A stretch of DNA of 42,038 nucleotides from Anaerolineae bacterium (lineage in GTDB: Bacteria > Chloroflexota > Anaerolineae > UBA4142). Numbering within the stretch: position 1 is the first letter of the stretch; the number at the start of each line of letters is the position of its first letter. Position numbers and translations under genes: made by a program. Location of the stretch: the NCBI GenBank assembly GCA_034435315.1, contig DAOTYB010000194.1:1-42038 (forward strand), read 5' to 3'. The notes below the pieces were generated by a model that was not told the origin of the DNA, made no database searches, and saw only the letters and a list, made by a program, of their open reading frames with translations. Positions 9,386 to 40,861 of this stretch are shown piece after piece.

Positions 9386-9571
9386 AACAGGGAGATGAGT
9401 GGGGTTGTCTCTTTGGGGTGAAAGATTTTTCACCCGTACAACGACGAAATTCAGGCTCAACCATCGGCTTGCGTTAGTCGTCGGTCGCTAACTGACAGCG
9501 AGCGATGCCGGGACTTGTCCCTGGTGGTATTATGCTCTAAATTGCCTGCAAACGCAAGTACCTTTGTCCTA

Positions 9572-9600
9572 TTGCCATTGCAAGCGGGATGTGATTAAAT
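9572..9600 (+). promoter_or_regulatory. Candidate sigma70-type promoter of the Ubl-system operon
   Basis: TTGCCA, 17 nt spacer, TTAAAT, with TG one base upstream of the -10 (extended -10 like). Predicted by eye only. Confidence 0.35.
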
Positions 9601-9610
9601 GCGTCCAGAT

Positions 9611-9637
9611 TGGTATTCTGGTCAGACCAGAATACCA
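9611..9637. promoter_or_regulatory. Perfect 27-nt palindrome (13+1+13), candidate GntR/FadR-type operator
   Basis: TGGTATTCTGGTC A GACCAGAATACCA. The core CTGGTcaGACCAG resembles FadR-type operators (TGGT-N-ACCA class). Ends 14 nt upstream of the ATG of the GntR-wHTH::E1 gene. Confidence 0.6.
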
Positions 9638-9650
9638 CAGGAAAGATGCG

Positions 9651-11318
9651 ATGAGAATTGATCCTGTCGAAAAAAGTACGCTGGCACAATCTGTGGCAGA
9701 ACGCCTTTTGCGTTTGATTGCTGATGGGACTTGTAAGCCCGGCGAAAAAATGCCGTCCGAACGCGAGTTGATGGAACGCCTTCAGGTAGCGCGTTCCACC
9801 GTGCGTGAAGCACTGCAAGCGCTTGCGGCGTCTCACGTCGTCGAGATTCGTCCCGGCGTCGGTACGTTTGTGCGCGAAAATGCGCGCGATCTGATTCCCG
9901 TTGCACTCGAAAGTTTGCGTAACCCGCGCGCAGTTGCAGCATCACGGAGTACATCGGGCGATGGCTCGGAACGCGTACAGGGCGCGGGGGTGAGTCCTTT
10001 GCCGCCTCCACCAGACAAACCGTTGCACATTCCGAATCTCAAAAAAGATCGGCTGGGGACGTTCGAGTTTATTTCGTGGTGGGAACGCAGCAAAGTTCAA
10101 GCCGCGCGTGTGATGGTGGTAGGCGCGGGCGCACTCGGTAACGAGGTGTTAAAAAATCTTGCTTTGATGGGCGTGGGCAACCTGTTCATCGTGGACTTTG
10201 ATACCATCGAAGCCGCCAATCTGAGTCGCTCGGTATTGTTCCGCGCCGAAGACAATGGCAAGAAAAAAGCCGAGGTTGCCGCGCGCCGCGTCAAAGAACT
10301 GAATCCCGATGTGCATGTTCAATATTTTCATGGCGATGTGAATGTTGCACTGGGGCTGGGCATCTTTCGTCGAATGGATGTGATTATCGGATGTCTCGAT
10401 AATCGCGAAGCGCGCCTGTCTATCAATCGCTTTGCGTATCGGTTGAACAAACCGTGGGTGGATGGTGCAATTCAAGAACTCTTTGGCTTGATGCGCGTGT
10501 TCGTCCCCGGGGAAGGAGCGTGCTACGAATGCACACTCACTGAACAAGCGCGCCGCGAAATGTCGTTGCGATACTCGTGCCCCCTGCTGGCGCGGCAAAA
10601 TATCTTGCTGGGCAAAGTGCCGACCACGCCAACCATCTCGGCGATTATTGCGGGACTGCAATCGCAAGAGGCGTTGAAACTCATTCACGGTATGCCGGTG
10701 CAGGCAGGCTATGTGACGCACGTCAACGGTTTGATCAACGAGTTTCACACCACTGCCTACACGCCCGATGAAAATTGTGAGAGTCATTGGATTTACGGAG
10801 ACATTACCGAGTTGCCGAACATCAAAGCCGCGACGACAACAGCAGCGGAACTCTTGCGTATCGCGCGCGAACAACTGGGTCCCGACGCGCTGATTGAACT
10901 CGATCAGGAAATCGTGACCCATCTGGAATGTCATCGTTGCGAAACGCGTACCGCGGTGTACAAACCCATCTCGCAGGTAAGTTACAACGAGGGATTGTGT
11001 CCCGGCTGTGGCGAGTTGCGCGAGGTGCAGATGGCGCACGTCATCACCGGCGATGAGCCGTTTCTGCACCGGACCCTTTTGGCGCTGGGGATTCCGCCGC
11101 TCCACATCGTGCGTGTGCGTAACGAGCACGAGTATCGCTTTTTGGAATTGACCGGCGATCTAGCCGAAACGTTGCACTGGTCGCACTTTGAGGGCGGCGC
11201 GCGTTCAGCGCATGCCGCGCGAGTGCGCTTGCATCCACGTCCGCGCATCAAACTGGGTGAGGTGGTTCAGGTGAACGCGCCGGTCGAACCCAAGCGTCCA
11301 CGAATCGTCGTGCATTAA
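9651..11318 (+). CDS. GntR-family winged-HTH fused to an E1-like (ThiF/MoeB/UBA-type) adenylating enzyme
   Basis: N-terminus LAQSVAERLLRLIADGTCKPGEKMPSERELMERLQVARSTVREALQALAASHVVEIRPGVGTFV is a GntR wHTH. A P/S-rich linker follows, then the Rossmann motif VMVVGAGALGNEVLKNLALMGVGNLFIVDFDTIEAANLSRS, plus CYEC, CHRC and CPGC zinc-type pairs. Start moved from 9564 to ATG 9651. Confidence 0.85.
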   Translation: MRIDPVEKSTLAQSVAERLLRLIADGTCKPGEKMPSERELMERLQVARSTVREALQALAASHVVEIRPGVGTFVRENARDLIPVALESLRNPRAVAASRSTSGDGSERVQGAGVSPLPPPPDKPLHIPNLKKDRLGTFEFISWWERSKVQAARVMVVGAGALGNEVLKNLALMGVGNLFIVDFDTIEAANLSRSVLFRAEDNGKKKAEVAARRVKELNPDVHVQYFHGDVNVALGLGIFRRMDVIIGCLDNREARLSINRFAYRLNKPWVDGAIQELFGLMRVFVPGEGACYECTLTEQARREMSLRYSCPLLARQNILLGKVPTTPTISAIIAGLQSQEALKLIHGMPVQAGYVTHVNGLINEFHTTAYTPDENCESHWIYGDITELPNIKAATTTAAELLRIAREQLGPDALIELDQEIVTHLECHRCETRTAVYKPISQVSYNEGLCPGCGELREVQMAHVITGDEPFLHRTLLALGIPPLHIVRVRNEHEYRFLELTGDLAETLHWSHFEGGARSAHAARVRLHPRPRIKLGEVVQVNAPVEPKRPRIVVH

Positions 11319-11345
11319 AGCGTTTGCTTTCAGCGAGCCGAAGGA

Positions 11346-12197
11346 ATGACGAGTGAATTTTCCAACCGCTGGCAGTTCCGTATCGGTTTTCTGTTGAGCG
11401 CGTTTTCGGGATTTGCCTGGGGGCTTGTACTGGGCTGGGCGCTGGTACGCCTGAACGCCTATCTCTCGGCGTGGCTCACGCTGGGTGTCACGTTGCCGCT
11501 GTTGTTCTGGGGGAGTCTGCTCGCCGGGCTGGGGTTCAACGTGATGTTGCCGCGCTGGCACAAACTGGTGCGCTGGCTGGTCGCCATTCCCATCCTCAGC
11601 GCGGGAAGTTTGTGGGGTATCCTGTGGGCGCTGATTGCCGATGGGATGGACCCTGTCAACCTGATTCGCTCGACGGGCTGGACGCTCTGGCAGTTGGAAG
11701 GGGTAGTGATGCTCGTGGGCTTGCTGGGTGGCATCTATCCGCGCTGGACCCTTCCCTTCTTGCGCCTGCTGGGACATCTGGCGCGTGGAGCGCTGGCTGT
11801 GCCGCTGCACCTGCTCCAGCGTCTGGGCGATGGCGTGTTGTGGCTGCCCCGCCAAATGCTGCGCGCCCTCGCACACGCGCGGGATAACGTGCGAGCCTTG
11901 GTGCCGATGCTTCCTGCGCTGCCATCGTGGAGTGGTCCCGCGTCAACATCGTCTCCCGCGCGCCCACGGACGCGTCGAGTCAAGCCAGCCCAGCCCAGAC
12001 CGGTGCACAATCGCAACAATGATTCGAACGGCGCGCGCATTGTCGCGCACATCGAGGATCGCTGTCCGTATTGCCTGGATGTGATCAAACCAAACGACCC
12101 GCGCGGTGTACGCGTGTGTGAGGTGTGTCACACACCGCATCACGCCGATTGCTGGGCAATCGCGGGCAAATGTCAGATGCCCCATTTGAATCTCTAG
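11346..12197 (+). CDS. Polytopic (about 4 TM) membrane protein with a C-terminal RING-like binuclear zinc finger (Prok-RING-like; candidate E3)
   Basis: Four hydrophobic helices in aa 10-130 and a P/S/R-rich linker. C-terminal pattern is C240-x2-C243-x14-C258-x2-C261-x3-H265-x3-C269-W-x5-C276-x3-H280 (CPYC...CEVCHTPHHADCWAIAGKCQMPH). Confidence 0.75.
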   Translation: MTSEFSNRWQFRIGFLLSAFSGFAWGLVLGWALVRLNAYLSAWLTLGVTLPLLFWGSLLAGLGFNVMLPRWHKLVRWLVAIPILSAGSLWGILWALIADGMDPVNLIRSTGWTLWQLEGVVMLVGLLGGIYPRWTLPFLRLLGHLARGALAVPLHLLQRLGDGVLWLPRQMLRALAHARDNVRALVPMLPALPSWSGPASTSSPARPRTRRVKPAQPRPVHNRNNDSNGARIVAHIEDRCPYCLDVIKPNDPRGVRVCEVCHTPHHADCWAIAGKCQMPHLNL

Positions 12198-12211
12198 TTC
12201 ACGGAGGATGT

Positions 12212-13069
12212 ATGGCGGACTTGAGTGTAACGCTAGTGTTGCCAACCGGTGGCGCGCGCACGGCGGAGGTGCCGGACGACGTGCCGGTGCGCGAATTGTT
12301 ACCCGAACTCGTTTCCGTACTCGAATTGCCGACCACGGGACCCGACGGCCGCCCAATGGGCTATCGGCTGGATAGCAAAGCCCTGGGGCGAGAACTGCGT
12401 GAGAATGAAACGCTGGCAGCCGCCGGTGTGCCGGCGAACGATCGGCTGATGATTACAGCGGACGTTACGGCGGGCGCGCCGACCGCGCTGGTGAATGCCA
12501 GTCCGCGCTTTCGCCGCCTCAAAGCCGATTACGAAAAAATGCTGGAACTCAAAGCGCATAGCGACATTATTGACTTTGAGGTGGTGGATGTCAAACCCGG
12601 TTTTCCACCCGAAAAGTACATCGTGACGTTCAAATGCAAAAGTATCATCGGCATTGATGCGGCGGGTAATCCCAAATTCGGCGACAAACATCAAGTAGCA
12701 ATTTACTTGCATAACGAATACCCCCATCGCTGGCCCGGTTTGAAATGGCTCACGCCCATCTGGCATCCTAACATCAAAGGGTCGAACGGCAGTGTGTGCA
12801 TTGATGCGGCGTGGTGGACGGCGGCACGCTCACTCGATCGCCTGGTGATTATGCTGGGCGAAATGGCACAGTGGAAAAATTTTCATGATGATCCGACCAA
12901 GCCGCCGTTCCCCTGGGACCTCGAAGCCGCCAAGTGGAGTATGAACTATCGCAAGAAACATCCCGACTTTTTTCCAGTGGACAAGCGTGAACTCTTGCGC
13001 CCCGAACGGGTCAAACTCAAAACCGCGCCGACCACAGCCAAATCCAAACCCAAAATCAAGTTGAAATGA
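12212..13069 (+). CDS. Ubiquitin-like domain fused to a canonical UBC-fold E2 (HPN motif + catalytic Cys)
   Basis: GGAGG SD 4 nt upstream of ATG 12212. Residues 1-88 are 81 percent identical to the free Ubl and end in the same TADVTAG. The E2 core is YPHRWPGLKWLTPIWHPNIKGSNGSVCID (Cys196 codon at 12797-12799) plus an N-terminal RFRRLKADYEKMLEL helix. Confidence 0.88.
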   Translation: MADLSVTLVLPTGGARTAEVPDDVPVRELLPELVSVLELPTTGPDGRPMGYRLDSKALGRELRENETLAAAGVPANDRLMITADVTAGAPTALVNASPRFRRLKADYEKMLELKAHSDIIDFEVVDVKPGFPPEKYIVTFKCKSIIGIDAAGNPKFGDKHQVAIYLHNEYPHRWPGLKWLTPIWHPNIKGSNGSVCIDAAWWTAARSLDRLVIMLGEMAQWKNFHDDPTKPPFPWDLEAAKWSMNYRKKHPDFFPVDKRELLRPERVKLKTAPTTAKSKPKIKLK

Positions 13070-13115
13070 TTTCGACCATACGGTCGTAATCGAAAAATCC
13101 AAACGGAGGTGCCCA

Positions 13116-13382
13116 ATGGCAGACGTGCCTGTAACGCTGGTTCTTCCGGCCGGTGGCTCGCGTACCGCCGAAGTACCCAACGATGTACCCATCAAGGACT
13201 TGTTGCCCGAACTCACTTCATCCTTGCAACTCCCCACCACGGGACCCGATGGCCGTCCGATGAGTTATCGGATTGACAGCAAGGCATTGGGGCGTGAACT
13301 GCGCGAGGATGAAACGCTCGAATCCGCCGGCGTGCCCGCAAACGATCGGCTGATGCTGACAGCGGATGTGACCGCCGGCTAG
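13116..13382 (+). CDS. Free ubiquitin-like (beta-grasp type) protein, 88 aa, ending in Gly
   Basis: GGAGG SD 6 nt upstream. Sequence MADVPVTLVLPAGGSRTAEVPNDVPIKDLLPELTSSLQLPTTGPDGRPMSYRIDSKALGRELREDETLESAGVPANDRLMLTADVTAG then stop. Paralog of the N-terminal domain of the E2 fusion. Confidence 0.85.
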   Translation: MADVPVTLVLPAGGSRTAEVPNDVPIKDLLPELTSSLQLPTTGPDGRPMSYRIDSKALGRELREDETLESAGVPANDRLMLTADVTAG

Positions 13383-13395
13383 CGTTCGCGCGATG

Positions 13396-13422
13396 GTAGC
13401 ACAGGACGCTCTCCTGTGCTAC
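13396..13422 (+). other. Intercistronic 11-bp perfect hairpin immediately after the Ubl gene (no U-tract)
   Basis: gtagcacagga-cgctc-tcctgtgctac. Confidence 0.7.
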
Positions 13423-13447
13423 AGCGTATCCCCTGGGGGTTGGGCAA

Positions 13448-14566
13448 ATGTCATCGGCTGGGGTAGCCGCCACACCTTTTCACGCGCTGGCGATCGTCGC
13501 ATCACACAACGCCGATGCCGCGCCGATGCTGTACGAACTACAGAGTGAATCCACGACCATCGGCTCGGCAGAGGATAACGCGATCGTTCTGGTGGATGCC
13601 AGCATTGCGCCGCATCACTGCACCGTGCGTCGTCAAGGCGAGTCCGTGTATCTTCTGGTGGATGTGGGCGAACGTCTGCGCGCGCGCGCGGATACGTGGG
13701 ACACCGCACTTCCCGGCGACACCTATTGGTGTCCCCGTCACGGCAAGGTGGAACAACTGGATGCGCGCCGGTGGTGTGCCCAGTGCAAACGTCGGCGCGG
13801 TTCGTTGTGGTTGATGCGTCCACTCCACCCGGGCGATACGTTCGAGATTGGCGCGGCGTTTCGGGCGACCTATGTGGTGCACGAGCGCGAGGGAGAAGCG
13901 CACGATGCGTCTTCTCCGTTATCGCACCCGTTAGCCCCTGCCCCAGCGCGCTCCATCTCACTCATACCAGCCGAAACGTCTTTGCCGGTGCGTCCCCCGC
14001 CGCGCGACGACTCGAATGTATGGTGCTGGCAACCTGAAGGCGTACCCTTTCCCATCTACTTGCACCAGCGCGTCAATCTCCACGTCACGCAGCATGCGCG
14101 CCAGAATATGGATCGCGAAGTTGGGGGTGTTTTACTCGGCGAGGTGGGGCTGGATGAGCAGGGGCAAATGTACGTCTATGTGACGCACGCTATCAAAGCC
14201 GAGTTCACCACCGAAGCGCGCGGACACCTCACCTTTTCTCATCGCACCTGGTTGCAGATTCATTCGATTCACCAGACGTTGTATCCCGACAGACTGATTG
14301 TCGGATGGTATCACACGCATCCGGGGTGGACGATTTTTCTCTCGCCGTGGGATTTGTTCATCCATCGAAATTTTTTCAAACAGCCCTGGCAGATTGCGCT
14401 TGTGATTGATCCGACGCTGGATCGCGCCGGCTTTTTCGTGTGGAAGGACAATCAAATCGCCAGTCCGCATCAGCCGATTGCTCCCTTTCGTCTGGCAGAA
14501 CTCGACTACTGGATGGAACTATTCAAACCGCGCGTGCGCGTCAAACTGACCGATACGGCGCGCTGA
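13448..14566 (+). CDS. FHA-like domain (with Cys/His insert) fused to a JAMM/MPN+ metalloprotease (candidate deconjugating/processing enzyme 1)
   Basis: FHA-like STTIGSAEDNAIVLVDASIAPHHCTV...VYLLVDVG ... GDTFEIG with insert WCPRHGKVEQLDARRWCAQCKRRRG. JAMM motifs are REVGGVLLGEV and GWYHTHPGWTIFLSPWD (HxHx7Sx2D). Confidence 0.85.
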   Translation: MSSAGVAATPFHALAIVASHNADAAPMLYELQSESTTIGSAEDNAIVLVDASIAPHHCTVRRQGESVYLLVDVGERLRARADTWDTALPGDTYWCPRHGKVEQLDARRWCAQCKRRRGSLWLMRPLHPGDTFEIGAAFRATYVVHEREGEAHDASSPLSHPLAPAPARSISLIPAETSLPVRPPPRDDSNVWCWQPEGVPFPIYLHQRVNLHVTQHARQNMDREVGGVLLGEVGLDEQGQMYVYVTHAIKAEFTTEARGHLTFSHRTWLQIHSIHQTLYPDRLIVGWYHTHPGWTIFLSPWDLFIHRNFFKQPWQIALVIDPTLDRAGFFVWKDNQIASPHQPIAPFRLAELDYWMELFKPRVRVKLTDTAR

Positions 14567-14580
14567 TAGAAGGAGGTAAA

Positions 14581-15231
14581 GTGTTGCGGGTCAAACTAGG
14601 AGGCACTGTACCCAGCCCCATCATCGAACGACCGATGCCACTGGCTCAAGCGTTGCAGTGGGTCTCGCCGTACGAGGCGGAGGTGGCAGCGCAGGTGCGC
14701 ATCTTTTTCACGCAATCCGCTTATCGCCGTTGTGCGGAACATACGCAAAGCGATTTGGACCACGAAGTGGGAGGCGCGCTCGTGGGCGAGGTATGTTACG
14801 ACGCGCTCTATGCGCAGACGTACATCGTGATTCAAGACATCCTCCCCGCTCTCTTTGCGCGCGCGGGCGAAACGCATCTGACCTTTACACAGGACACGCT
14901 GGTTGATTTCAATAACCAACTGGAGGCGCGTTTTCCGGACAAACGGATTGTGGGATGGTATCACACGCATCCGCGTCTGGGAGTGTTCTTATCGGGATAC
15001 GATACTTTTTTGCATCGGCATTTTTTTCCTGACCCGAATCAAGTAGCACTCGTCATTGATCCGGCGGCACAGCAGGCGGGCTTTTTTTGCTGGCAACGTG
15101 ACGCCTCGCTCGATCCGCGGCGCTATGTCGGTTTCTATGAGGTGAGCGATCTGGACGAGTACAGCATCGTCGAGTGGGAGAATCTCACACCAGCGGTCTC
15201 GGTGCAGACGCCAGAAAGTGAGGCACAATGA
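14581..15231 (+). CDS. Stand-alone JAMM/MPN+ metalloprotease (candidate deconjugating/processing enzyme 2)
   Basis: AGGAGG at 14571-14576, then GTG 14581 (ATG 14635 is an alternative). Motifs HEVGGALVGEV and GWYHTHPRLGVFLSGYD. Clear paralog of the C-terminal half of the previous gene. Confidence 0.85.
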   Translation: MLRVKLGGTVPSPIIERPMPLAQALQWVSPYEAEVAAQVRIFFTQSAYRRCAEHTQSDLDHEVGGALVGEVCYDALYAQTYIVIQDILPALFARAGETHLTFTQDTLVDFNNQLEARFPDKRIVGWYHTHPRLGVFLSGYDTFLHRHFFPDPNQVALVIDPAAQQAGFFCWQRDASLDPRRYVGFYEVSDLDEYSIVEWENLTPAVSVQTPESEAQ

Positions 15232-16088
15232 GTTTACGAATGCGGGCGTACTATTACGCGATTCTGGGCGCGATCGGCGCGCTCATTGGTGGACGTATCG
15301 GCGATACGATTGGTTTTGTGCACGGGATGAATGTGTATGTGAGTGATGTCATCCTCGGCGCGATTCTGGGGTTGAGTATCGGTGTGTTGATTGGTGCCAG
15401 CGAGGGTTTGCTGGAGCGCTCGTGGTATCGCACGCTGCGCGCCGCTCTGGTGGCGGGCAGCATTGGCATGGTGGCAGGCGCGGTGGGCTTGCCCATCGGC
15501 GAGTTGGTGTTTCAACTCTCCGGCGGCGAACTCGTTGGACGTGCGCTGGGGTGGGCGCTGTTCGGTTTGCTGATTGGCTGGTCGGAAGGCTACATCACCG
15601 GAGCACAGGCGTGGAAAGGCGCGCTGGGCGGCGTGGTGGGGGGAACCATCGGCGGGGTCATTTTGTTTCTCCTGCAATCTCTCTTCGGTGCCTCGGAGTT
15701 GGGCAAGATTCTGGGCTTGAGCGTGTTGGGCGCGGCGGTGGGTGCGTTCATTGCCTTGATTGTGGTGATCCTCTCGCGCGCGTGGCTCGAAGTCAAAACG
15801 GGTAAACTCAAAGGCAATGAATTCATCCTCGACAAATTCTTGCCCACACACGGACCCGCCGCGATTATCGGCAGTAACGATTTCAAAGCGGACATTGCAC
15901 TCCCCGACCCGGCGATTGCACCCCAACATGCGCGCTTGAAAGGCGCGGGCACACACTTTGTGATTGAGGATATGAGTGTGGGCAAAGGAACGTTCGTGAA
16001 TGGTCGCAAAGTGGAAACAGCGCGCTTGACGAACAACGCGGTCATTCGTCTGGGCAACACCGAGTTGGTGTACCACGAGCGACGTTAA
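15228..16088 (+). CDS. Gly-rich polytopic membrane protein with a C-terminal FHA domain
   Basis: ATGA start/stop overlap with the upstream JAMM gene. N-terminal glycine-zipper-like helices. C-terminus AIIGSNDFKADIALPDPAIAPQHARLKGAGTHFVIEDMSVGKGTFVNGRKVETARLTNNAVIRLGNTELVY. Confidence 0.85.
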   Translation: MSLRMRAYYYAILGAIGALIGGRIGDTIGFVHGMNVYVSDVILGAILGLSIGVLIGASEGLLERSWYRTLRAALVAGSIGMVAGAVGLPIGELVFQLSGGELVGRALGWALFGLLIGWSEGYITGAQAWKGALGGVVGGTIGGVILFLLQSLFGASELGKILGLSVLGAAVGAFIALIVVILSRAWLEVKTGKLKGNEFILDKFLPTHGPAAIIGSNDFKADIALPDPAIAPQHARLKGAGTHFVIEDMSVGKGTFVNGRKVETARLTNNAVIRLGNTELVYHERR

Positions 16089-16184
16089 GCGATTGCCGAT
16101 TTTCGATTTGCGATTTGCGATTTTCACTGGAAGCCGCGATCGGCAATTGGCAATCGCACATCGGCAATCGGCAATCGCAAATCG
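16089..16184. repeat. Inverted heptamer arrays (CGATTTG-like x5, 12-nt spacer, AATCGSM-like x6-7), hairpin-capable
   Basis: gcgattgccgattttcgatttgcgatttgcgattttc ... gatcggcaattggcaatcgcacatcggcaatcggcaatcgcaaatcg read directly. Located between the FHA and vWA genes. Confidence 0.9.
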
Positions 16185-16199
16185 ACAGCAGGGGGTCGT

Positions 16200-17414
16200 A
16201 TGAGAAAGTTTATCGTCTTCTGGATGTGGGTGTGCGTGTTCGGCTGGCTTGCTGCGACGGGGGTGCAGGCGCAAGCGCAGGTGAATATCCGCGTGACGCA
16301 AGTGGATACCTCGCGCTTTCCACAGGTGGACGTGTACATCTCGGTCACGGATGCCAGCGGCAATCCCGTGCGTCACATTTCCCCGAGCGCCTTTCGCGTG
16401 ACGGAGAATGGCGCAGAAATGTCGCTGACCAGCGTCACGCGCGCGGGTGAGCAAGGCGCGGTCAACACTATCTTGATTATTGATCGCAGCGGCAGTATGG
16501 CGGCGGGCGACAAGATGGTCGCGGCGAAACAAGCGGCGAGTACCTTTGTCAATTTGATGCGCCCCGGCGACAAGACCGCGTTGATCCAGTTCGATACCGA
16601 AATCGAGACACTGCAAACGTTCACGGATGACAAAGCCAGGTTGTTGGCGGCGATTCAAAAAATCTTTCCGCGCGGCAATACCGCGCTGTACGATGCGCTG
16701 GATCACGCCGCGCGCTATTTCGAGACGGTGCAGGGACGCAAAGCCATCATCGTGCTGACCGACGGTATGGATACAGCAAGCAAACTGGGGCGTGAAGCGA
16801 TTGTGCAACGTGTGAGTCACGGTGGCTTTTCGGTTTACACCGTGGGGCTGGGTGCCCGCAATACGGCGTATGGCAGTCAAGAAGGCGTTGACGAGGAGAT
16901 TTTGCGTGAACTGGCAAACGTGACCTATGGCAATTACTACTACAGTCCCGATGGCAGCCAGTTGAGTGAACTGTATCAACAGTTGTCGTTCCTGCTCCAG
17001 AACGAATACAAACTCACCTACCTTTCACCCAATCCTTTGCGCGATGGCGTCAAGCGCAACATTGTGGTCACGGCGATGGGCGCCGGCAGTACACGCACCG
17101 AGTTCAATCCCGGTGGCGTCATTCCCGAAGTGGCAACGCAGGCGACCTCGTGGATCCTCTTTTTCGTCGTGCTGGCGGTGTTGCTCGCGCTGTTACTCGT
17201 TCCTGCGGCAATACACCTGCTCCGCGCGCGCGGGGTGGCGCTGCCGACTGTGCCCACGTCTGCGTCAGCGCCGCAGAAACCGAGTCGTATCAAATTGACC
17301 GGTGAGGCTCCACCGGCAGGAACGGCGCAACCTAAATCGCGCATCAAGATCAAACAATCATCCAGCGACACCGCGCGCCCGATGCCGTGGGATGAAAATC
17401 CAGATGGACATTGA
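16200..17414 (+). CDS. Secreted vWA-domain protein with a C-terminal TM anchor and a Lys/Ser/Thr-rich cytoplasmic tail
   Basis: Signal peptide MRKFIVFWMWVCVFGWLAATGVQAQA, MIDAS motif IIDRSGSM with downstream T and D, TM helix WILFFVVLAVLLALLLVPAAIHLL, and a tail with two PxSRIK motifs. Confidence 0.85.
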   Translation: MRKFIVFWMWVCVFGWLAATGVQAQAQVNIRVTQVDTSRFPQVDVYISVTDASGNPVRHISPSAFRVTENGAEMSLTSVTRAGEQGAVNTILIIDRSGSMAAGDKMVAAKQAASTFVNLMRPGDKTALIQFDTEIETLQTFTDDKARLLAAIQKIFPRGNTALYDALDHAARYFETVQGRKAIIVLTDGMDTASKLGREAIVQRVSHGGFSVYTVGLGARNTAYGSQEGVDEEILRELANVTYGNYYYSPDGSQLSELYQQLSFLLQNEYKLTYLSPNPLRDGVKRNIVVTAMGAGSTRTEFNPGGVIPEVATQATSWILFFVVLAVLLALLLVPAAIHLLRARGVALPTVPTSASAPQKPSRIKLTGEAPPAGTAQPKSRIKIKQSSSDTARPMPWDENPDGH

Positions 17415-17479
17415 GCGTCTGGCGTATCGCAAACGCCATTCACTATACGCCATACGCTTTCTACTCAAGGGAGGTTAGA

Positions 17480-18511
17480 ATGTCGAACGTATTTGAACAG
17501 ATGCCCGATGTAGGCAAAAAGAAACCCACGAGTGCCGCCAAGACGCCCAGTCGCACACCGCTGGTGGTGGGAGCACTCGCCGTATTTTTAATGCTGTTGT
17601 TGTGTGCGTTGCTGGCTGGTGGCGGCTATTGGCTCTGGTCGTCTCAGCAGGGCAGCCCCGTCGCTCTATCTCCAACGCCCGGCGTCAAGTTCGCACAGCC
17701 GGTTATGCCTGTCGGAGGCCGCGTCCGCATCGCCTTTAGTGTCGAGCGCGGGGGGCGCCCTGAAGACAAGTTCGTGTGGATAATGAACGCCGATGGGAGT
17801 GATGCCAGGCAGGTGCTCAAGAATGCGTCTTCGCCCGCTCTTTCGCCGGACGGTTCGTTGATTGCCTACTATCACTGGAACGAGGGCATTCACGTGGCGA
17901 ATGTCAATGGGACCAACGCGCGCAAGATCGTGGGCGAAGCGCATGCCAAGTATCTCGCCTGGTCGAATGATGGCAAATGGATTGCCTTTTCCTCGCAACC
18001 GATTCTGGATCGCACGGTGCTGGTCAACATTGATGCGGTGCGCGTGGATGGTAGCGGGCGGCGTACCATCGTTTATGGCGGTACGCAACCGTCGTGGTCG
18101 CCGGACGACAAGTACATTGCGTTTGCTACTTGTCGCGGTTCCGATTGTGGCATCTACAAAGCCAGTTCGGCAGGCGGAGATGCCGGTACTCCCATCACTA
18201 AAGATTTGGGAACGAACCCCGCTTGGTCACCCACAGGCAATCAGATTCTATATCAGGCTGATGTGGACGGGGTCAAGCACTTGTTTGTTGTGAACGTGGA
18301 TGGTAGTGGCAAACGTCAACTCACGTGGGGTACTTCGCCGCGCGTGGGCGCGCAATGGTCGCCGGACGGAAGTGCCATCTACTATCGCGCGCTCGAAGAT
18401 GGAGTGTGGAGCATCTGGCGAATGAATGCAGATGGCTCGAACCCTGTCCGCATCGCTACCGATGTACCACCTGTTGATTGGGCGTACGAACGCCTGGCGC
18501 TGAGTCGCTAA
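17480..18511 (+). CDS. N-terminally anchored TolB-like beta-propeller protein (PD40/WD40-like repeats)
   Basis: GGGAGG SD upstream of ATG 17480. Short basic cytoplasmic tail, TM helix, and repeated SPDG / WSPD / DGS blades (ALSPDGSLIAY, AWSNDGKWIAF, SWSPDDKYIAF, AWSPTGNQILY, QWSPDGSAIYY). Confidence 0.85.
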   Translation: MSNVFEQMPDVGKKKPTSAAKTPSRTPLVVGALAVFLMLLLCALLAGGGYWLWSSQQGSPVALSPTPGVKFAQPVMPVGGRVRIAFSVERGGRPEDKFVWIMNADGSDARQVLKNASSPALSPDGSLIAYYHWNEGIHVANVNGTNARKIVGEAHAKYLAWSNDGKWIAFSSQPILDRTVLVNIDAVRVDGSGRRTIVYGGTQPSWSPDDKYIAFATCRGSDCGIYKASSAGGDAGTPITKDLGTNPAWSPTGNQILYQADVDGVKHLFVVNVDGSGKRQLTWGTSPRVGAQWSPDGSAIYYRALEDGVWSIWRMNADGSNPVRIATDVPPVDWAYERLALSR

Positions 18512-28925: not shown

Positions 28926-29690
28926 ATGAAACGCTGGTTACCTTGGGTCAATCTCGCGACGGTTATCGTCGCACTGACGGTGAATGTTCTGGCAAACGCG
29001 CTGCCGTTGAACGGGCAAAGCACGGGCGCCATTTCGGACAAGTTCAAGGTGTTTTTCGTCCCTGCGGGTTATGTCTTTGCAATCTGGGGTGTCATCTACA
29101 TCGGTTGGATTGCGTTTGTCGTGTACCAGTTGTTGCCCGCACAGCGCGACAACGCGCGCCTCGCGCGCATCGGCTGGCTGTTTGTGTTCAGCAACCTCGC
29201 GAACGCGGCGTGGTTGTTCACCTGGCATTACGAACTCTTGCCCCTCTCGGTCGTGGTGATGCTCGCGCTGCTCCTCTCACTCATTGGAATCTACGTCCGC
29301 TTGAACATCGGACGCGCGCGCGTGACGACAATCGAAAAATGGTGCGTGGATGTTCCGTTCAGCATCTACCTCGGCTGGATCAGCGTGGCGACGATTGCGA
29401 ACATCACCGATTTGCTGTACGCGTTAAAGTGGGACGGCCTGGGCATCGCGCCTGAAATGTGGGCGGCGGTGATGCTCGTCGTCGCATCCGCGCTCGCGCT
29501 GGTGATGACGTGGACGCGCCGCAACCTTGCGTATCTGGTGGTGCTGGTCTGGTCGTTCATCGGCATCGCGGTCAAACAATCGGCGGTGGCAGTGGTGGCG
29601 AACACGGCGTGGGTGACGACCGCGTTCGTCGTCCTGTTGATTGCGTCGAGCGTCTGGTTGCGCGCGCGCAAATCGGTTGCTGCGAGTTGA
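28926..29690 (+). CDS. Trp-rich polytopic membrane protein, TspO/MBR-related
   Basis: About 254 aa with multiple TM helices and W-rich motifs (AIWGVIYIGWIAF, NAAWLFTWHY, SIYLGWISVATIAN). Family assignment by eye. Start moved from 28839 to ATG 28926. Confidence 0.6.
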   Translation: MKRWLPWVNLATVIVALTVNVLANALPLNGQSTGAISDKFKVFFVPAGYVFAIWGVIYIGWIAFVVYQLLPAQRDNARLARIGWLFVFSNLANAAWLFTWHYELLPLSVVVMLALLLSLIGIYVRLNIGRARVTTIEKWCVDVPFSIYLGWISVATIANITDLLYALKWDGLGIAPEMWAAVMLVVASALALVMTWTRRNLAYLVVLVWSFIGIAVKQSAVAVVANTAWVTTAFVVLLIASSVWLRARKSVAAS

Positions 29691-29698
29691 GTATCGGA

Positions 29699-30982
29699 AT
29701 GGGCACAACCTTCGGGCTGACGATCAAAGTGGTTGCCGAACGCACGGGTGTATCGGTGCATACCTTGCGCGCGTGGGAGCGGCGCTATGGCGTGCCTGCG
29801 CCCAAGCGCGACGCGGACAATCGCTATCGTCTGTACGATGAGCAGGACATTGCCGATGTGTTGTGGCTGAGGCAACAAGTGGAAGCAGGCATTCCGCCCG
29901 CGCAGGCGAGCGCGCTGTTGCGCCAGCGTCGTCAGTCTGCGCGCGCGATGGTTGAAGCGATGCAACCGCTCGCGACGACACAAGCCGCGCTGTTCGATGC
30001 GTTCGCGCGTTCGGACGAGACGGCCGCGCGGCGAATCTTGGACGAAGCGTTCGCGCTCTTTGCGCCTGAACAAGTGGCGCAACACATCATCGTCCCCACG
30101 CTGCGCGAGATTGGCGCGCGCTGGATGCGCGGCGAGATGACCGTGTGGCAAGAGCATCTGGCGAGCAACGTCATTCAACAAAAATTGTTTGCGATTTTGC
30201 AAGCGCAACCCGCGCTGCCGCTCGCGGTGCCAACGCTGGTTGCCGCGTGCGCGCCCAACGAAGAGCACGCGCTCGGTCTGCTCATCTTTTCGCTGATCGC
30301 GCAGCGTCAAGGGTGGCGCGTGATTTTTCTGGGACAGGGTACGCCGCTTGCCGACATCAACGCGGCGGCGCGCCTCCAGCCGAAATTCATCGTGGTCTCT
30401 GTGACGACGGTGATTGGTCTGGCGGGGCTAATCCCTTGGCTTGATGCGGCGCAGCGCCCTGCGGTTCCACTTGTCTTTGCGGGGCGCATCGTGGACGCGC
30501 TGCCGAATTTGCGCGCGCATTTGCCTGGCGAGTATCTGGGCGCGGAGATGATTGCGCCCGCGCAACTCTTGACACTGAAACCGCGCGCCGAGTATTGGTC
30601 GCCCAGCAAGCGCGCGTTGAACGCGGCAAACGCGCTGTACGCGCGCCGACTCGAAATCGCGGGCGAGACGGTCGCGCGATTCTTCGCGACGCTCGCGCCG
30701 AATCATCATCGCACGTGGAACGTGAACGACATCAATTTTGCGACGTTGTTTCTGATTGATGCGGTCACCTGCGCGCTTGCGTTCGGCGTGCCCGAATTGA
30801 TGGACACGGAACGCGCGTGGTTGGACGAGATGATGCCATCGCGCGCAGTGCCTGCCGAATTGGTTACGCAACATCTCACAACGTTTGCGCGCGTGCTGGG
30901 ACAATCGTTTTCCAAAGAACACAATCGGTTGTATCAATCGCTGATTGAACGAATGAAAAATGCAAGGCGGTCGTACGAATGA
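29699..30982 (+). CDS. MerR-HTH + cobalamin-binding-domain regulator, CarH/LitR-type light sensor candidate, with an extra about 170-aa C-terminal domain
   Basis: MerR HTH LTIKVVAERTGVSVHTLRAWERRYGVPAPKR. W-x9-EH motif (WMRGEMTVWQEH). ExHxxG lower-ligand motif (NEEHALG). Start moved from 29459 to ATG 29699. Confidence 0.8.
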   Translation: MGTTFGLTIKVVAERTGVSVHTLRAWERRYGVPAPKRDADNRYRLYDEQDIADVLWLRQQVEAGIPPAQASALLRQRRQSARAMVEAMQPLATTQAALFDAFARSDETAARRILDEAFALFAPEQVAQHIIVPTLREIGARWMRGEMTVWQEHLASNVIQQKLFAILQAQPALPLAVPTLVAACAPNEEHALGLLIFSLIAQRQGWRVIFLGQGTPLADINAAARLQPKFIVVSVTTVIGLAGLIPWLDAAQRPAVPLVFAGRIVDALPNLRAHLPGEYLGAEMIAPAQLLTLKPRAEYWSPSKRALNAANALYARRLEIAGETVARFFATLAPNHHRTWNVNDINFATLFLIDAVTCALAFGVPELMDTERAWLDEMMPSRAVPAELVTQHLTTFARVLGQSFSKEHNRLYQSLIERMKNARRSYE

Positions 30983-36319: not shown

Positions 36320-36440
36320 GAATCCCCATGAACGCTCTGCGTTCATCAGCGTTCGGATGAAAATATCCACGAAGGACACGAAGCGTCACGAAGGTTTTTT
36401 CTTCGTGTTCCTTCGTGACCTTCGTGGACACAGGAGAGGT
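36319..36440. repeat. CACGAAG-hairpin intergenic element, copy A
   Basis: aatccccatgaacg..gcgttcatcagcgttcggatgaaaatatccacgaaggacacgaagcgtcacgaagg-tttttt-cttcgtgttccttcgtgaccttcgtggaca-caggagagg. Ends 5 nt before the DegV ATG. Confidence 0.9.
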
Positions 36441-36444
36441 AAAT

Positions 36445-37281
36445 ATGTCTGTTCGAATTGTTACTGATAGCACGTGCGATTTGCCTGCCGAGACGATTGC
36501 GCGCTATGGTATTCGCGTGGTGCCGCTCTACATCAACGTCGGCAAGCAAGGGTATCTGGATGGCGTGGACATTACGCGGCAAGAGTTTTACCAGCGCTTG
36601 CCCACGTTTCCCGAACATCCAACGACTGCCGCGCCATCGCCGCTGAAATTCCGCTCGATGTACGACGCGCTGGCGGATGAAGGCGCGACGCACGTCTTGT
36701 CCATTCACATTTCGAGCGCGCTGAGCGCGGTGGTGGACACCGCGAGCATCGGCGCGCGCGAAACAACGTCTGTGCCGGTGACCGTGTTCGATTCGCGGCA
36801 GTTGAGTCTTGGCACGGGCTTTCTCGTCGAGACGGCGGCGAAACTCGCGGCAGAAGGTCGCGCGGTCGGCGAAATCATCGCCGCGCTGAACGAGCAGATC
36901 AAGCGCTCGCATGTTTTTGCCGCGCTCGATACGCTGGAATTTTTAAAGCGCAGCGGGCGAATGAACGGCGTCATCGCCGGTTTTGGCACGCTCTTGCAAC
37001 TCAAGCCGATTCTGACGATGTACGATGGCAAGCCGGGCGCGGAGCGTGTTCGTACGCGCGAACGCGCGACGGAACGCATCCTCGAAATGTTGGCGGATGT
37101 GGGCGCGCTCGAACGCGTTGCGATTGTGCATACGCACGCGCACGCGCGCGTCGCGGAATTGCGCGAACGCGCCGCGCATCTCCTGCCGCCTGATGATGTT
37201 CCTGCAGTGGACATTACGCCGGTCATCGGCGCGCATATCGGACCGGGCGCGGTGGGATTCGCGGTGGTGAGTAAGAAATGA
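36445..37281 (+). CDS. DegV-family fatty-acid-binding protein
   Basis: MSVRIVTDSTCDLP..., typical DegV N-terminus and length. Start moved from 36415 to ATG 36445. Confidence 0.88.
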   Translation: MSVRIVTDSTCDLPAETIARYGIRVVPLYINVGKQGYLDGVDITRQEFYQRLPTFPEHPTTAAPSPLKFRSMYDALADEGATHVLSIHISSALSAVVDTASIGARETTSVPVTVFDSRQLSLGTGFLVETAAKLAAEGRAVGEIIAALNEQIKRSHVFAALDTLEFLKRSGRMNGVIAGFGTLLQLKPILTMYDGKPGAERVRTRERATERILEMLADVGALERVAIVHTHAHARVAELRERAAHLLPPDDVPAVDITPVIGAHIGPGAVGFAVVSKK

Positions 37282-37308: not shown

Positions 37309-37326
37309 ATTTTTGATTGCGATGGT

Positions 37327-37530
37327 TATATCCACGAAGGAACACGAAGTTTCACGAAGGTTTTTTCTTCGTGTTCCTTCGTGACCTTGGTGGACAAATG
37401 TATTTTCAGGAGAATTCCCCATGAACTTGCGTTCACCAACGTTCGGATGAAAATATCCACGAAGATTCACGAAGGTTTTTTCTTCGTGTTCCTTCGTGAC
37501 CTTCGTGGACAAATGTATTTTCAGGAGAGG
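37327..37530. repeat. CACGAAG-hairpin intergenic element, copies B and C in tandem
   Basis: Each has tccacgaag...cacgaagg-tttttt-cttcgtgttccttcgtgacctt(c/g)gtggacaaatgtattttcaggaga. Copy C ends in the SD before ATG 37541. Confidence 0.9.
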
Positions 37531-38898: not shown

Positions 38899-38995
38899 GA
38901 TGGAAAAATATCCACCAAGAACACGAAGATGCACGAAGATTTTTTCTTCGTGTTTCTTCGTGACCTTCGTGGACAAATGTATTGTTGTAAGGAGG
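38899..38995. repeat. CACGAAG-hairpin intergenic element, copy D
   Basis: aaaaatatccaccaagaacacgaagatgcacgaaga-tttttt-cttcgtgtttcttcgtgaccttcgtggacaaatgtattgttgtaaggagg. Ends 5 nt before ATG 39000. Confidence 0.9.
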
Positions 38996-38999
38996 ATCA

Positions 39000-39473
39000 A
39001 TGTCGAAAATCGCGCTCAACACTCTCGCGCCGGATTTCGCGCTGGACGATTTTCAGGGACGCCAGGTGCGCCTTGCCGATTTTCGTGGCAAGAAGAATGT
39101 CGTGCTGATTTTCAATCGTGGCTTTGCGTGACCATTTTGCCAGAGGCATATGGCGCAGTTGCGCCAGGATGTTGACGCGTTTGTAAAACGCGATGCGGAA
39201 ATCATCGTCGTCGGTCCAGAAAACGCGCGCGCGTTTGCCGAGTACTGGCGGAAACACAATCTGCCGTTCGTCGGCTTGCCCGACCCGACCGCCAGCGTGC
39301 TCAAGTTGTACGGGCAAGAGGTGAACCTGTTCAAACTGGGACGAATGCCCGCACAAGTGATCATAGACCGCGCGGGCGTGGCGCGTTTTGTTCACTATGG
39401 ACATTCGATGAGGGACATTCCGGCAAATGCTGAATTGCTCGCGATTCTCGATACATTGAATCAGGAAGCGTGA
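39000..39473 (+). CDS. AhpC/TSA (Prx-like, thioredoxin-fold) protein with in-frame UGA at the redox-active position: probable selenoprotein (UxxC)
   Basis: ATG 39000 with AGGAGG SD. Reads MSKIALNTLAPDFALDDFQGRQVRLADFRGKKNVVLIFNRGFA-TGA(39129-39131)-PFCQRHMAQL..., continuing in the same frame as ORF 39150-39473. The TGA replaces the first Cys of the CPFC-type motif. A hairpin lies 18-42 nt downstream. Confidence 0.7.
39147..39171 (+). promoter_or_regulatory. Candidate bacterial SECIS hairpin
   Basis: cat-a-tggcgc-AGTT-gcgcca-gg-atg gives a 9-bp interrupted stem. The apical loop contains GU, 28-31 nt after the U of UGA. Confidence 0.5.
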
Positions 39474-40861
39474 TGCGTCGAGTGATCTGGTGGCTGCGGC
39501 GCGATCTGCGCCTGACCGATAACATCACGTTGCATTACGCGTTGCGCGATGCGTCCGCGGTGATTCCCGTTTTCATTCTCGATGCGCGCCTCTTGCGCAG
39601 CGACACACTCGCGCCCGCGCGCAAGCAATTTCTGTTCGATTCGCTCGCCGATCTCGATGCACGATTACGCGCGCGCGGCGGACGATTGATTGTGCGGCGC
39701 GGCGATCCCGCGCGCGAACTGGCGCGCCTAGCGCGCGAGACGCAAAGCGACGCGGTGTACTTGCATCGCGATTACACGCCGTACGCTCGCGCGCGTGATG
39801 CGCGCGTGGTCAACGCGCTGGGCGCGCTCGGTGTGCGCATCGAAGCGTTCGACGACAATTATCTTGCCGCGCCTGAACAGGTGTTGAAGGACGACGGCAC
39901 GCCATACACCGTGTTCACGCGCTTTCGCCAGCGCTTTGAAGAGCGCGTGATTGTGCCGAATCGTTACGCGGCGCGCGGCGATTTGAACACCCCGCGCGAC
40001 ATTGCGTCGCTAGATGTGCCACGCGTCGAGCGCGAGCATCGTTTTGCGCGCGGTGGCGAGACCGAGGGGCTGAAACTTGCGCGCGCGTTCTTGCGTCGCG
40101 CGGATGGTTTGCGCGCGTATCGCGACACGCGCGATTTTCCCGCGCGCGATGCCACGTCGCATCTCTCGCCGCATTTGCATTTTGGCACTGTGTCGGTGCG
40201 CGAACTGGTGCGCGCCGCGCGCGCGGTGGACGCTGGTGCGAATGGCAAAGCGTGGTTGGACGAACTGGTGTGGCGCGAGTTTTACGCGTATGTACTGTGG
40301 CATTTTCCGCACGCGGCGCGCGGCGCGTTTCGGCGCGCGTACGAAACAATCGCGTGGGAGAATGATGCGGAAAAATTCGCGGCGTGGTGTGCGGGTCGCA
40401 CCGGCTATCCGATGGTGGACGCGGCGATGCGGCAACTGAACGCGACGGGGTGGATGCACAATCGCGCGCGGATGATCGTCGCGTCGTTTCTCACCAAAGA
40501 TTTGCTGATTGATTGGCGCTGGGGCGAGAAATATTTTTTGCAAAACTTGGTTGATGGCGATATGGCATCGAACAATGGCGGCTGGCAATGGGCGGCAGGA
40601 ACAGGAACGGACGCGCAGCCGTTCTTTCGCATTTTCAATCCCGTCTTGCAAGGCGCGCGGTTCGATCCCGATGGCGCGTACGTCAAGCGGTGGGTGCCCG
40701 AACTGGCGCGCGTGCCGCGCGAGTATGTACACGCGCCCGCTACAATGCCGCGCGAGATCGCGCGGCGCGCGGGTGTGGAAGTCGGCAGGGATTATCCCGC
40801 GCCGATTGTGGAGCATGCGGTACAACGTGAGCGCGCGGTGGCGCTGTATCGGCAAAAGTAA
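39470..40861 (+). CDS. phr: Deoxyribodipyrimidine photolyase (class I CPD photolyase/cryptochrome family)
   Basis: VIWWLRRDLRLTDN, TGYPMVDAAMRQLNATGWMHNRARMIVASFLTKDLLIDWRWGEKYF, DGDMASNNGGWQWAAGTGTDAQPFFRIFNP. Start GTG 39470 or ATG 39473, overlapping the upstream stop. Confidence 0.95.
   Translation: MMRRVIWWLRRDLRLTDNITLHYALRDASAVIPVFILDARLLRSDTLAPARKQFLFDSLADLDARLRARGGRLIVRRGDPARELARLARETQSDAVYLHRDYTPYARARDARVVNALGALGVRIEAFDDNYLAAPEQVLKDDGTPYTVFTRFRQRFEERVIVPNRYAARGDLNTPRDIASLDVPRVEREHRFARGGETEGLKLARAFLRRADGLRAYRDTRDFPARDATSHLSPHLHFGTVSVRELVRAARAVDAGANGKAWLDELVWREFYAYVLWHFPHAARGAFRRAYETIAWENDAEKFAAWCAGRTGYPMVDAAMRQLNATGWMHNRARMIVASFLTKDLLIDWRWGEKYFLQNLVDGDMASNNGGWQWAAGTGTDAQPFFRIFNPVLQGARFDPDGAYVKRWVPELARVPREYVHAPATMPREIARRAGVEVGRDYPAPIVEHAVQRERAVALYRQK

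Follow-up and report, generated by a model that had tools for sequence, protein, structure and literature searches.

A very probable selenocysteine codon followed by a conserved coding-region hairpin in a Prx-like thioredoxin-fold gene of Anaerolineae

We examined a DNA stretch of 42,038 nucleotides from an Anaerolineae bacterium (NCBI GenBank assembly GCA_034435315.1, contig DAOTYB010000194.1, forward strand), which as a whole is referred to here as the window. The subject of this analysis is the gene located at 39000-39473 of the window, which encodes a protein of the AhpC/TSA-Redoxin type and carries an in-frame TGA codon within its active-site motif. The features found at this locus strongly suggest a gene in which UGA is read as selenocysteine (Sec) with the help of a selenocysteine insertion sequence (SECIS), and they are as follows.

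38990-38995, forward strand: Shine-Dalgarno sequence AGGAGG, read from the sequence, with a 4-nt spacer to the ATG at 39000.
39000-39473, forward strand: predicted complete selenoprotein gene of 157 codons (Sec being codon 44) plus a TGA stop, with an AhpC/TSA-Redoxin thioredoxin fold.
39129-39131, forward strand: in-frame UGA, putatively Sec (U44), at the first position of a U-P-F-C redox motif.
39138-39140, forward strand: Cys47 (TGC), the second residue of the UxxC motif and the counterpart of the peroxidatic Cys in peroxiredoxins.
39151-39166, forward strand: putative SECIS hairpin UGGCGC-AGUU-GCGCCA, with a 6-bp stem that starts 19 nt after the UGA; RNAalifold consensus of 81 sequences.
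39157-39160, forward strand: apical loop AGUU of this hairpin, 25 nt after the UGA, or 28-31 nt when counted from the U of the UGA.
39471-39473, forward strand: genuine TGA stop, which shares one base with the ATG (39473) of a downstream photolyase gene.

The reading frame that starts at ATG 39000 encodes MSKIALNTLAPDFALDDFQGRQVRLADFRGKKNVVLIFNRGFA, a 43-residue AhpC/TSA-like N-terminus, meets the TGA at 39129-39131 and resumes with PFCQRH; the residues after the TGA read PFCQRHMAQLRQD and so on, and the frame runs on to the TGA at 39471-39473. An initial annotation of this DNA had reported the AGGAGG before ATG 39000, the AhpC/TSA-type frame and the TGA, all of which are indeed found there, while the 112 codons that it counted beyond PFC turned out to be 110 sense codons and a stop. 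When codon 44 is translated as Cys, the Pfam model AhpC-TSA matches over the whole protein length (1.7e-22, 80.1 bits, cut-off 26) and the Redoxin model is recognized as well (1.2e-17, 64.5 bits, cut-off 26.6). Because the gene's own stop is also TGA, one and the same mRNA would use this codon both for Sec and for termination.

In the mechanical list of open reading frames (ORFs) the gene is cut in two, at 39000-39131 (43 amino acids) and 39150-39473 (107 amino acids), and public gene calls for the same locus in six assemblies contain the same cut, with a 43-residue piece that has a weak AhpC-TSA match and a piece of 107 residues. Taken at face value, such calls would agree with a pseudogene, in which a nonsense mutation or a sequencing error has placed a TGA that truncates a former Cys redoxin, so that at most fragments are made. 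However, the six assemblies are independent and their locus sequences are identical. The TGA, which stands in the motif F-A-U-P-F-C, is the sole in-frame TGA within the gene, and there is no second stop or frameshift.

We scanned one genome per species and obtained relatives of the gene at 575 places, the best 80 of which were examined. The 80 carry full-length orthologs and, together with the window, a metagenome contig and six further copies of the same locus from other assemblies, make up a set of 88 sequences. Codon 44 is TGA in every one of the 88, its context is NR[GT][FL]xUP[FY]C, and the motif UP[FY]C is present in all of them. The 80 best genomes are nearly all from Chloroflexota and mostly from Anaerolineae, and two isolates are among them, Leptolinea sp. 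HRD-7 (AP024710.1) and Longilinea arvoryzae KOME-1 (NZ_DF967972.1). Additionally, we scanned metagenomes with a Cys-form homolog (P0040) as the seed; despite this Cys-form query, codon 44 was TGA in 77 and TGC in two of the 79 relatives that were read. Neither TAA nor TAG was present at codon 44 in the 88-sequence set or in the 79 metagenome relatives, which argues against a simple stop, where any stop codon would serve. In total, the site is TGA in approximately 165 orthologs, whose proteins are only 50-77% identical.

The two parts of the gene evolve in the same manner. Mean pairwise differences among 82 orthologs at codon positions 1, 2 and 3 are 0.34, 0.22 and 0.60 upstream of the TGA and 0.25, 0.15 and 0.58 downstream of it. 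Third positions dominate the divergence on both sides, which shows that both halves are translated in one frame, and judging by this substitution pattern the protein is under purifying selection along the whole gene. Decayed copies do occur: one locus (L093, approximately 1001-1408), which has CGA (Arg) at the TGA position and a frameshift upstream of it, has probably decayed or been misassembled. Nevertheless, retention of the TGA in so many orthologs at this level of protein identity, together with purifying selection in the same frame on both halves, leaves practically no probability for a pseudogene, nonsense mutation or sequencing error at the window's locus.

The next alternative is that a standard amino acid is inserted at this UGA, because the organism uses another genetic code or because read-through is general. 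Database annotation appears to agree with this reading, because among the best 120 database homologs 53 cover the full length and have Trp in the Sec position; another 54 start exactly at MAQLRQD (Met51) and are without the active site, about eight have Cys and two have Arg. In one of the Trp entries (L007, locus 104-580) the DNA codon is TGA, which had been translated with another code table. We conclude that, throughout this family, entries truncated at Met51 or showing Trp for Sec are systematic artefacts of annotation. Furthermore, TGA is the commonest stop among the long ORFs of the window (18 of 39) and ends the gene itself; it is therefore no general sense codon in this organism, and a local signal is needed for reading it.

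In true Cys homologs the site is aligned with Cys and not with Trp. Cys codons (TGT or TGC) occupy the TGA position in L088-L092, L113 and L117, which represent six distinct Cys-form genes (L088, L089, L090/L117, L091, L092 and L113), and the same position is matched by the first Cys of WCPYC in 3hdc, a thioredoxin-family protein of solved structure. The initial annotation had placed the TGA at the first redox Cys, giving U-P-F-C, and had suggested an alignment of homologs as a check; this alignment puts the TGA at the first Cys of CxxC in L088-L092 and in 3hdc, and the aligned Cys codons agree with the placement. Trp at the nucleophilic position of CxxC would abolish redox chemistry, and a conserved local hairpin of the SECIS type is located downstream of the codon. 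A standard amino acid at this site is, in our assessment, very improbable.

We analyzed the hairpin in two alignments, one of 81 sequences (A2) and one of 149 distinct sequences (A5). The loop reads AGUU throughout A2, and none of the 149 sequences of A5 varies in columns 35-38. The initial annotation had proposed a larger hairpin at 39147-39171 with a GU-containing tetraloop 28-31 nt after the UGA. The tetraloop is the AGUU at 39157-39160 and the inner hairpin at 39151-39166 is conserved; the outer CAU/AUG pairs are peculiar to the window sequence, and the outer stem (39147-39149 with 39169-39171) was dropped as unconserved in relatives. The published bacterial SECIS consensus has a loop of 3-9 nt, an upper stem of 4-16 bp, G in the first two loop positions, a distance of 16-37 nt from UGA to loop and an energy of at most -7.5 kcal/mol (PMC13188914, Fig. 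2). The conserved hairpin falls within each of these limits, with a loop of 4 nt, a stem of 6 bp, G at loop position 2 followed by U, a spacing of 25 nt from UGA to loop and an energy of -10.0 kcal/mol.

Synonymous codon choice within the hairpin is nearly frozen. Ala52 is encoded by GCG in 77 of 79 sequences, Gln53 by CAG in 82 of 82 and Leu54 by TTG in 82 of 82, while the codon of Arg55 is only CGC or CGT. This freezing is confined to the hairpin codons 52-55 and to Cys47 (TGC in 82 of 82), whereas at other conserved residues synonymous codons varied freely; third-position divergence is 0.07 inside the hairpin versus approximately 0.59 elsewhere. The stem remains paired in 98.4% of cells in the 149 distinct sequences, with compensatory changes at three of the six pairs (41 cells). 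None of 500 shuffles matches the observed paired percentage, the number of compensatory cells or the covariation score, and all slid registers of the hairpin score far below the true register. The stem variants GGCGC/GCGCC, GACGC/GCGUC, GAUGC/GCAUC and GGCAC/GUGCC are all still paired, and some of them change the protein (Ala to Met with Arg to His, Ala to Thr, Arg to Cys). Codon freezing and stem covariation are two independent lines of evidence that show selection on the RNA. With regard to the SECIS, which the initial annotation had suggested as a further check, the downstream hairpin matches the published consensus and has both frozen synonymous sites and compensatory changes. The locus is a clean case of a coding-region RNA signal shaping protein evolution, in which paired replacements of Ala and Arg by Met and His preserve the stem.

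Two other observations concern the spacer between the UGA and the hairpin. RNAalifold also proposes a second mini-helix, UGC/GCA (columns 16-18 with 24-26), which we did not count: it consists of invariant Cys and His codons and a third-position G, without covariation. Separately, the third position of codon 49 (window position 39146, column 24 of both alignments) is G in 79 of 81 sequences while the residue itself varies (Arg, Lys, Ala, Glu). This G and the fixed TGC at Cys47 may be due to an additional short helix (UGC/GCA) or to a constraint on the sequence of the spacer between UGA and SECIS.

The position of the hairpin also brings up a different reading, in which two products are made: a 43-residue peptide stops at the UGA, translation re-initiates at AUG 39150 and the hairpin regulates the restart. 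This AUG lies 18 nt after the UGA with GAGG ahead of it, the hairpin overlaps it by including its U and G, and all 82 genome-set sequences have this AUG, which is replaced by CTG or TTG in just two of the 149 sequences of A5 (L111 and L163). However, Met51 is also conserved in the fetched full-length Cys forms, and its conservation is therefore explained by the protein. A restart would tolerate TAA or TAG at the upstream stop, and neither is found in the approximately 165 sequences; the 107-residue fragment would be without the redox motif and without the first strands of the thioredoxin fold; and the UGA is located exactly at the position of the active-site Cys. We consider re-initiation unlikely to a high degree, and we retain the reading in which the UGA specifies Sec.

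Several results weigh against Sec decoding. The hairpin is intact in three of the six Cys-form genes (L088, L090/L117 and L092), has one mismatch in two others (L089 and L113) and is wholly lost in L091, so the link between hairpin and UGA is not absolute in this six-gene sample; the Cys forms fit recent conversions from Sec to Cys that carry a relic SECIS, six genes being a small sample. Folded alone, the window sequence is not significantly stable (z = -0.93), and for a 57-nt segment the fold of minimum free energy has a different pairing. As the single-sequence fold is uninformative, support for the hairpin is taken from comparison with relatives. Rfam models gave no SECIS or other meaningful match, either at the gathering threshold over the window or in a permissive search of 39090-39230. 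Finally, no selA, selB, selD or tRNA-Sec was found within the 42 kb of the window or in the sequences that flank the gene in the 80 genomes: according to ARAGORN, the window contains no tRNA and the 691 kb of flanking sequence contain no tRNA-Sec, approximate probes for SelD and SelB of E. coli gave no tblastn match in the window or the loci, and Pfam annotation of 20 window ORFs identified unrelated genes and no sel genes.

Related organisms are known to possess the machinery. Anaerolinea thermophila UNI-1, with 4 selenoproteins, and Caldilinea aerophila, with 3, both have SelD, SelA and SelB (PMC5029168 Tables S1 and S2), and single-cell genomes of Anaerolineales contain SelB (PMC4959059). 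Additionally, approximately 165 intact TGA orthologs under purifying selection cannot all be non-functional. From this published work on related Anaerolineae and from the ortholog argument we infer that the source organism has the decoding machinery.

Taken together, the conservation of the TGA, its alignment with Cys, the downstream hairpin of the SECIS type and the existence of a known class of such proteins make it very probable that the UGA at 39129-39131 encodes selenocysteine, as the initial annotation had argued in preference to a nonsense mutation. During translation, this UGA would be read as selenocysteine, with the coding-region hairpin at 39151-39166 (loop AGUU), 19 nt downstream, serving as a bacterial SECIS that would bring SelB, loaded with Sec-tRNA(Sec), to the ribosome. 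No such hairpin accompanies the second TGA, at 39471-39473, which would terminate the protein.

We used a Cys homolog that is 68% identical to the window protein (P0004) for examining the fold. Its AlphaFold model has a pLDDT of 90.7 and a thioredoxin fold, and in this model Cys44 is placed directly before helix 45-56, the first long helix, as expected for the CxxC of a thioredoxin fold. The best structural matches of the model are BCP peroxiredoxins, ResA, AhpE and 3hdc, with TM-scores of approximately 0.7-0.8. In the family profile, U44 is aligned with the Thr/Ser of the peroxiredoxin motif PxxxT/SxxC (2ywn peroxiredoxin, 2cx3 BCP, AhpE) and Cys47, which is invariant and always TGC, is aligned with the peroxidatic Cys of the same proteins, while the Pro of this motif is represented by an invariant Arg40. 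Since Thr/Ser is replaced by Sec44 and Pro by Arg40, the active site is of the thioredoxin UxxC type and is not a peroxiredoxin catalytic site. Therefore, the protein is not a canonical peroxiredoxin; it has a peroxiredoxin-type scaffold that bears a thioredoxin-type UxxC motif.

The predicted Sec44 stands at the place of the nucleophilic Cys of a thioredoxin-type CxxC and would form a selenenylsulfide with Cys47 while reducing a disulfide or a peroxide; the most likely chemistry is nucleophilic attack by Sec44 with resolution by Cys47 via this selenenylsulfide. A bolder proposal is that these proteins form a distinct, Chloroflexota-centred and almost obligately Sec-containing subfamily with a hybrid active site on a peroxiredoxin scaffold and would represent a new catalytic variant, in which Cys47 is kept, the catalytic Arg (R115, which is not cleanly aligned) is probably kept, Thr has become Sec and Pro has become Arg. 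We regard this proposal as doubtful. If true, the protein would be more than another UxxC redoxin, for example a selenenylsulfide-forming peroxidase or reductase.

What is added here is a subfamily that spans at least 80 species, nearly all of them Chloroflexota, that is almost always in the Sec form, has a very rigid SECIS and is mostly mis-annotated in public databases. A corrected annotation would give a conserved redox enzyme back to at least the 80 best-matching species genomes. Anaerolineae are common in sediments, digesters and hot springs, and the use of selenium would be widespread among them. Since the class and the mechanism are already known, the finding is a modest one and opens no new question.

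The genomic neighborhood of the gene and other parts of the window contain the following features.

39473-40861, forward strand: DNA photolyase, which starts on the last base of the selenoprotein gene's stop (TGATG).
Approximately 29459-30982, forward strand: regulator with MerR and B12-binding domains (CarH/LitR-like, of the light-sensing type), approximately 8 kb upstream of the selenoprotein gene.
36356-36447, forward strand: palindromic intergenic element, copy 1, overlapping the start of a DegV gene.
37321-37413 and 37446-37528, forward strand: palindromic intergenic element, copies 2 and 3, at or just upstream of the start of a DUF1295 gene.
38911-38992, forward strand: palindromic intergenic element, copy 4, ending at the ribosome-binding site of the Prx-like gene.
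9564-11318, forward strand: GntR and ThiF (E1-like), by Pfam, as are all the features that follow.
11346-12197, forward strand: Prok-RING_1.
12125-13069, forward strand: fusion of YukD (ubiquitin-like) and UQ_con (E2).
13448-14566, forward strand: FHA and JAB.
14440-15231, forward strand: JAB/Prok-JAB.
15228-16088, forward strand: FHA.
16200-17414, forward strand: VWA.
17411-18511, forward strand: PD40 beta-propeller.

The MerR-B12 regulator and the photolyase hint at a light or oxidative-stress neighborhood, although a photolyase follows the gene directly only in L008, L009 and L035, its three closest relatives. DegV, DUF4345 and DUF1295 are encoded nearby in about a third of the loci. The palindromic element is approximately 70-90 nt long and consists of CACGAAG repeats and their complement CTTCGTG around a run of T; its four copies are in the same orientation, and its 28-nt core occurs four times versus zero expected. 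Among the 173 loci fetched it is found only in those of the source organism itself, and it could be an element of the REP/MITE-like kind or a shared regulatory site. Finally, the gene cluster at 9564-18511 on the forward strand resembles a prokaryotic ubiquitin-like conjugation system according to Pfam.

The window protein can be compared with several known systems. Canonical BCP/PrxQ and AhpE peroxiredoxins carry the motif PxxxT/SxxC plus a catalytic Arg. The window protein is similar to them in fold (TM-score of approximately 0.8 to Bcp1, 3drn, and to AhpE) and in having Cys47 at the position of the peroxidatic Cys; it differs from them in having Sec44 for Thr/Ser and Arg40 for Pro. With ResA/TlpA-type oxidoreductases and 3hdc of Geobacter metallireducens it shares a CxxC-type motif placed where the first long helix begins; WCPYC of 3hdc is aligned with A-U-P-F-C of the window protein, and ResA is among the best structural matches. 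Identity to these proteins is only 22-31%, however, and the window protein has Sec in place of the first Cys.

The SECIS of E. coli fdhF is a coding-region hairpin soon after the UGA, with a stem that starts 11 nt after this codon and a small apical loop with G-U at loop positions 2-3. The window hairpin is likewise located within the coding region shortly 3' of the UGA and has a small loop with G-U at positions 2-3, but it is of a different sequence, its stem starts 19 nt after the UGA, it has no evident bulged U and it has no Rfam match. Among NCBIfam models the best match is the SelL-related redox protein (NF040769), a family of Prx-like redox proteins that also has a link to selenoproteins. 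With 76.9 bits the match stays below the curated cut-off of 120 and covers only residues 10-105, and the window protein is thus not a member of this family.

The closest counterparts are selenoproteins that reviews already list, in accordance with the statement in the initial annotation that Prx-like UxxC proteins are a recognised bacterial selenoprotein class. Two such predicted families are the Prx-like thiol:disulfide oxidoreductases (PF00578, UxxC/UxxU) and the Redoxin family proteins (PF08534, UxxC) (PMC13188914 Table 1, PMC9312934, PMC2398784). Their listed representatives include WP_010940744.1, which is named for the Prx-like family, and HEU0032618.1. Similarly to them, the window protein has AhpC-TSA and Redoxin domains, a UxxC motif with the putative Sec first, a coding-region hairpin of the SECIS type just downstream and Cys homologs. 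By the reviews' definition, which combines domain and motif, the gene is a member of the Prx-like thiol:disulfide oxidoreductase selenoproteins, having both PF00578 and UxxC. The window subfamily differs from these selenoproteins in being centred on Chloroflexota/Anaerolineae and in passing no curated NCBIfam model. Another difference is seen with 'Prx-like 1' (UxxC), which is among the abundant selenoprotein families of ocean metagenomes and in which Cys forms outnumber Sec forms by approximately 12 to 1 (PMC2398784), whereas the window subfamily, with approximately 165 TGA-bearing genes versus six distinct Cys-form genes, is nearly all in the predicted Sec form.

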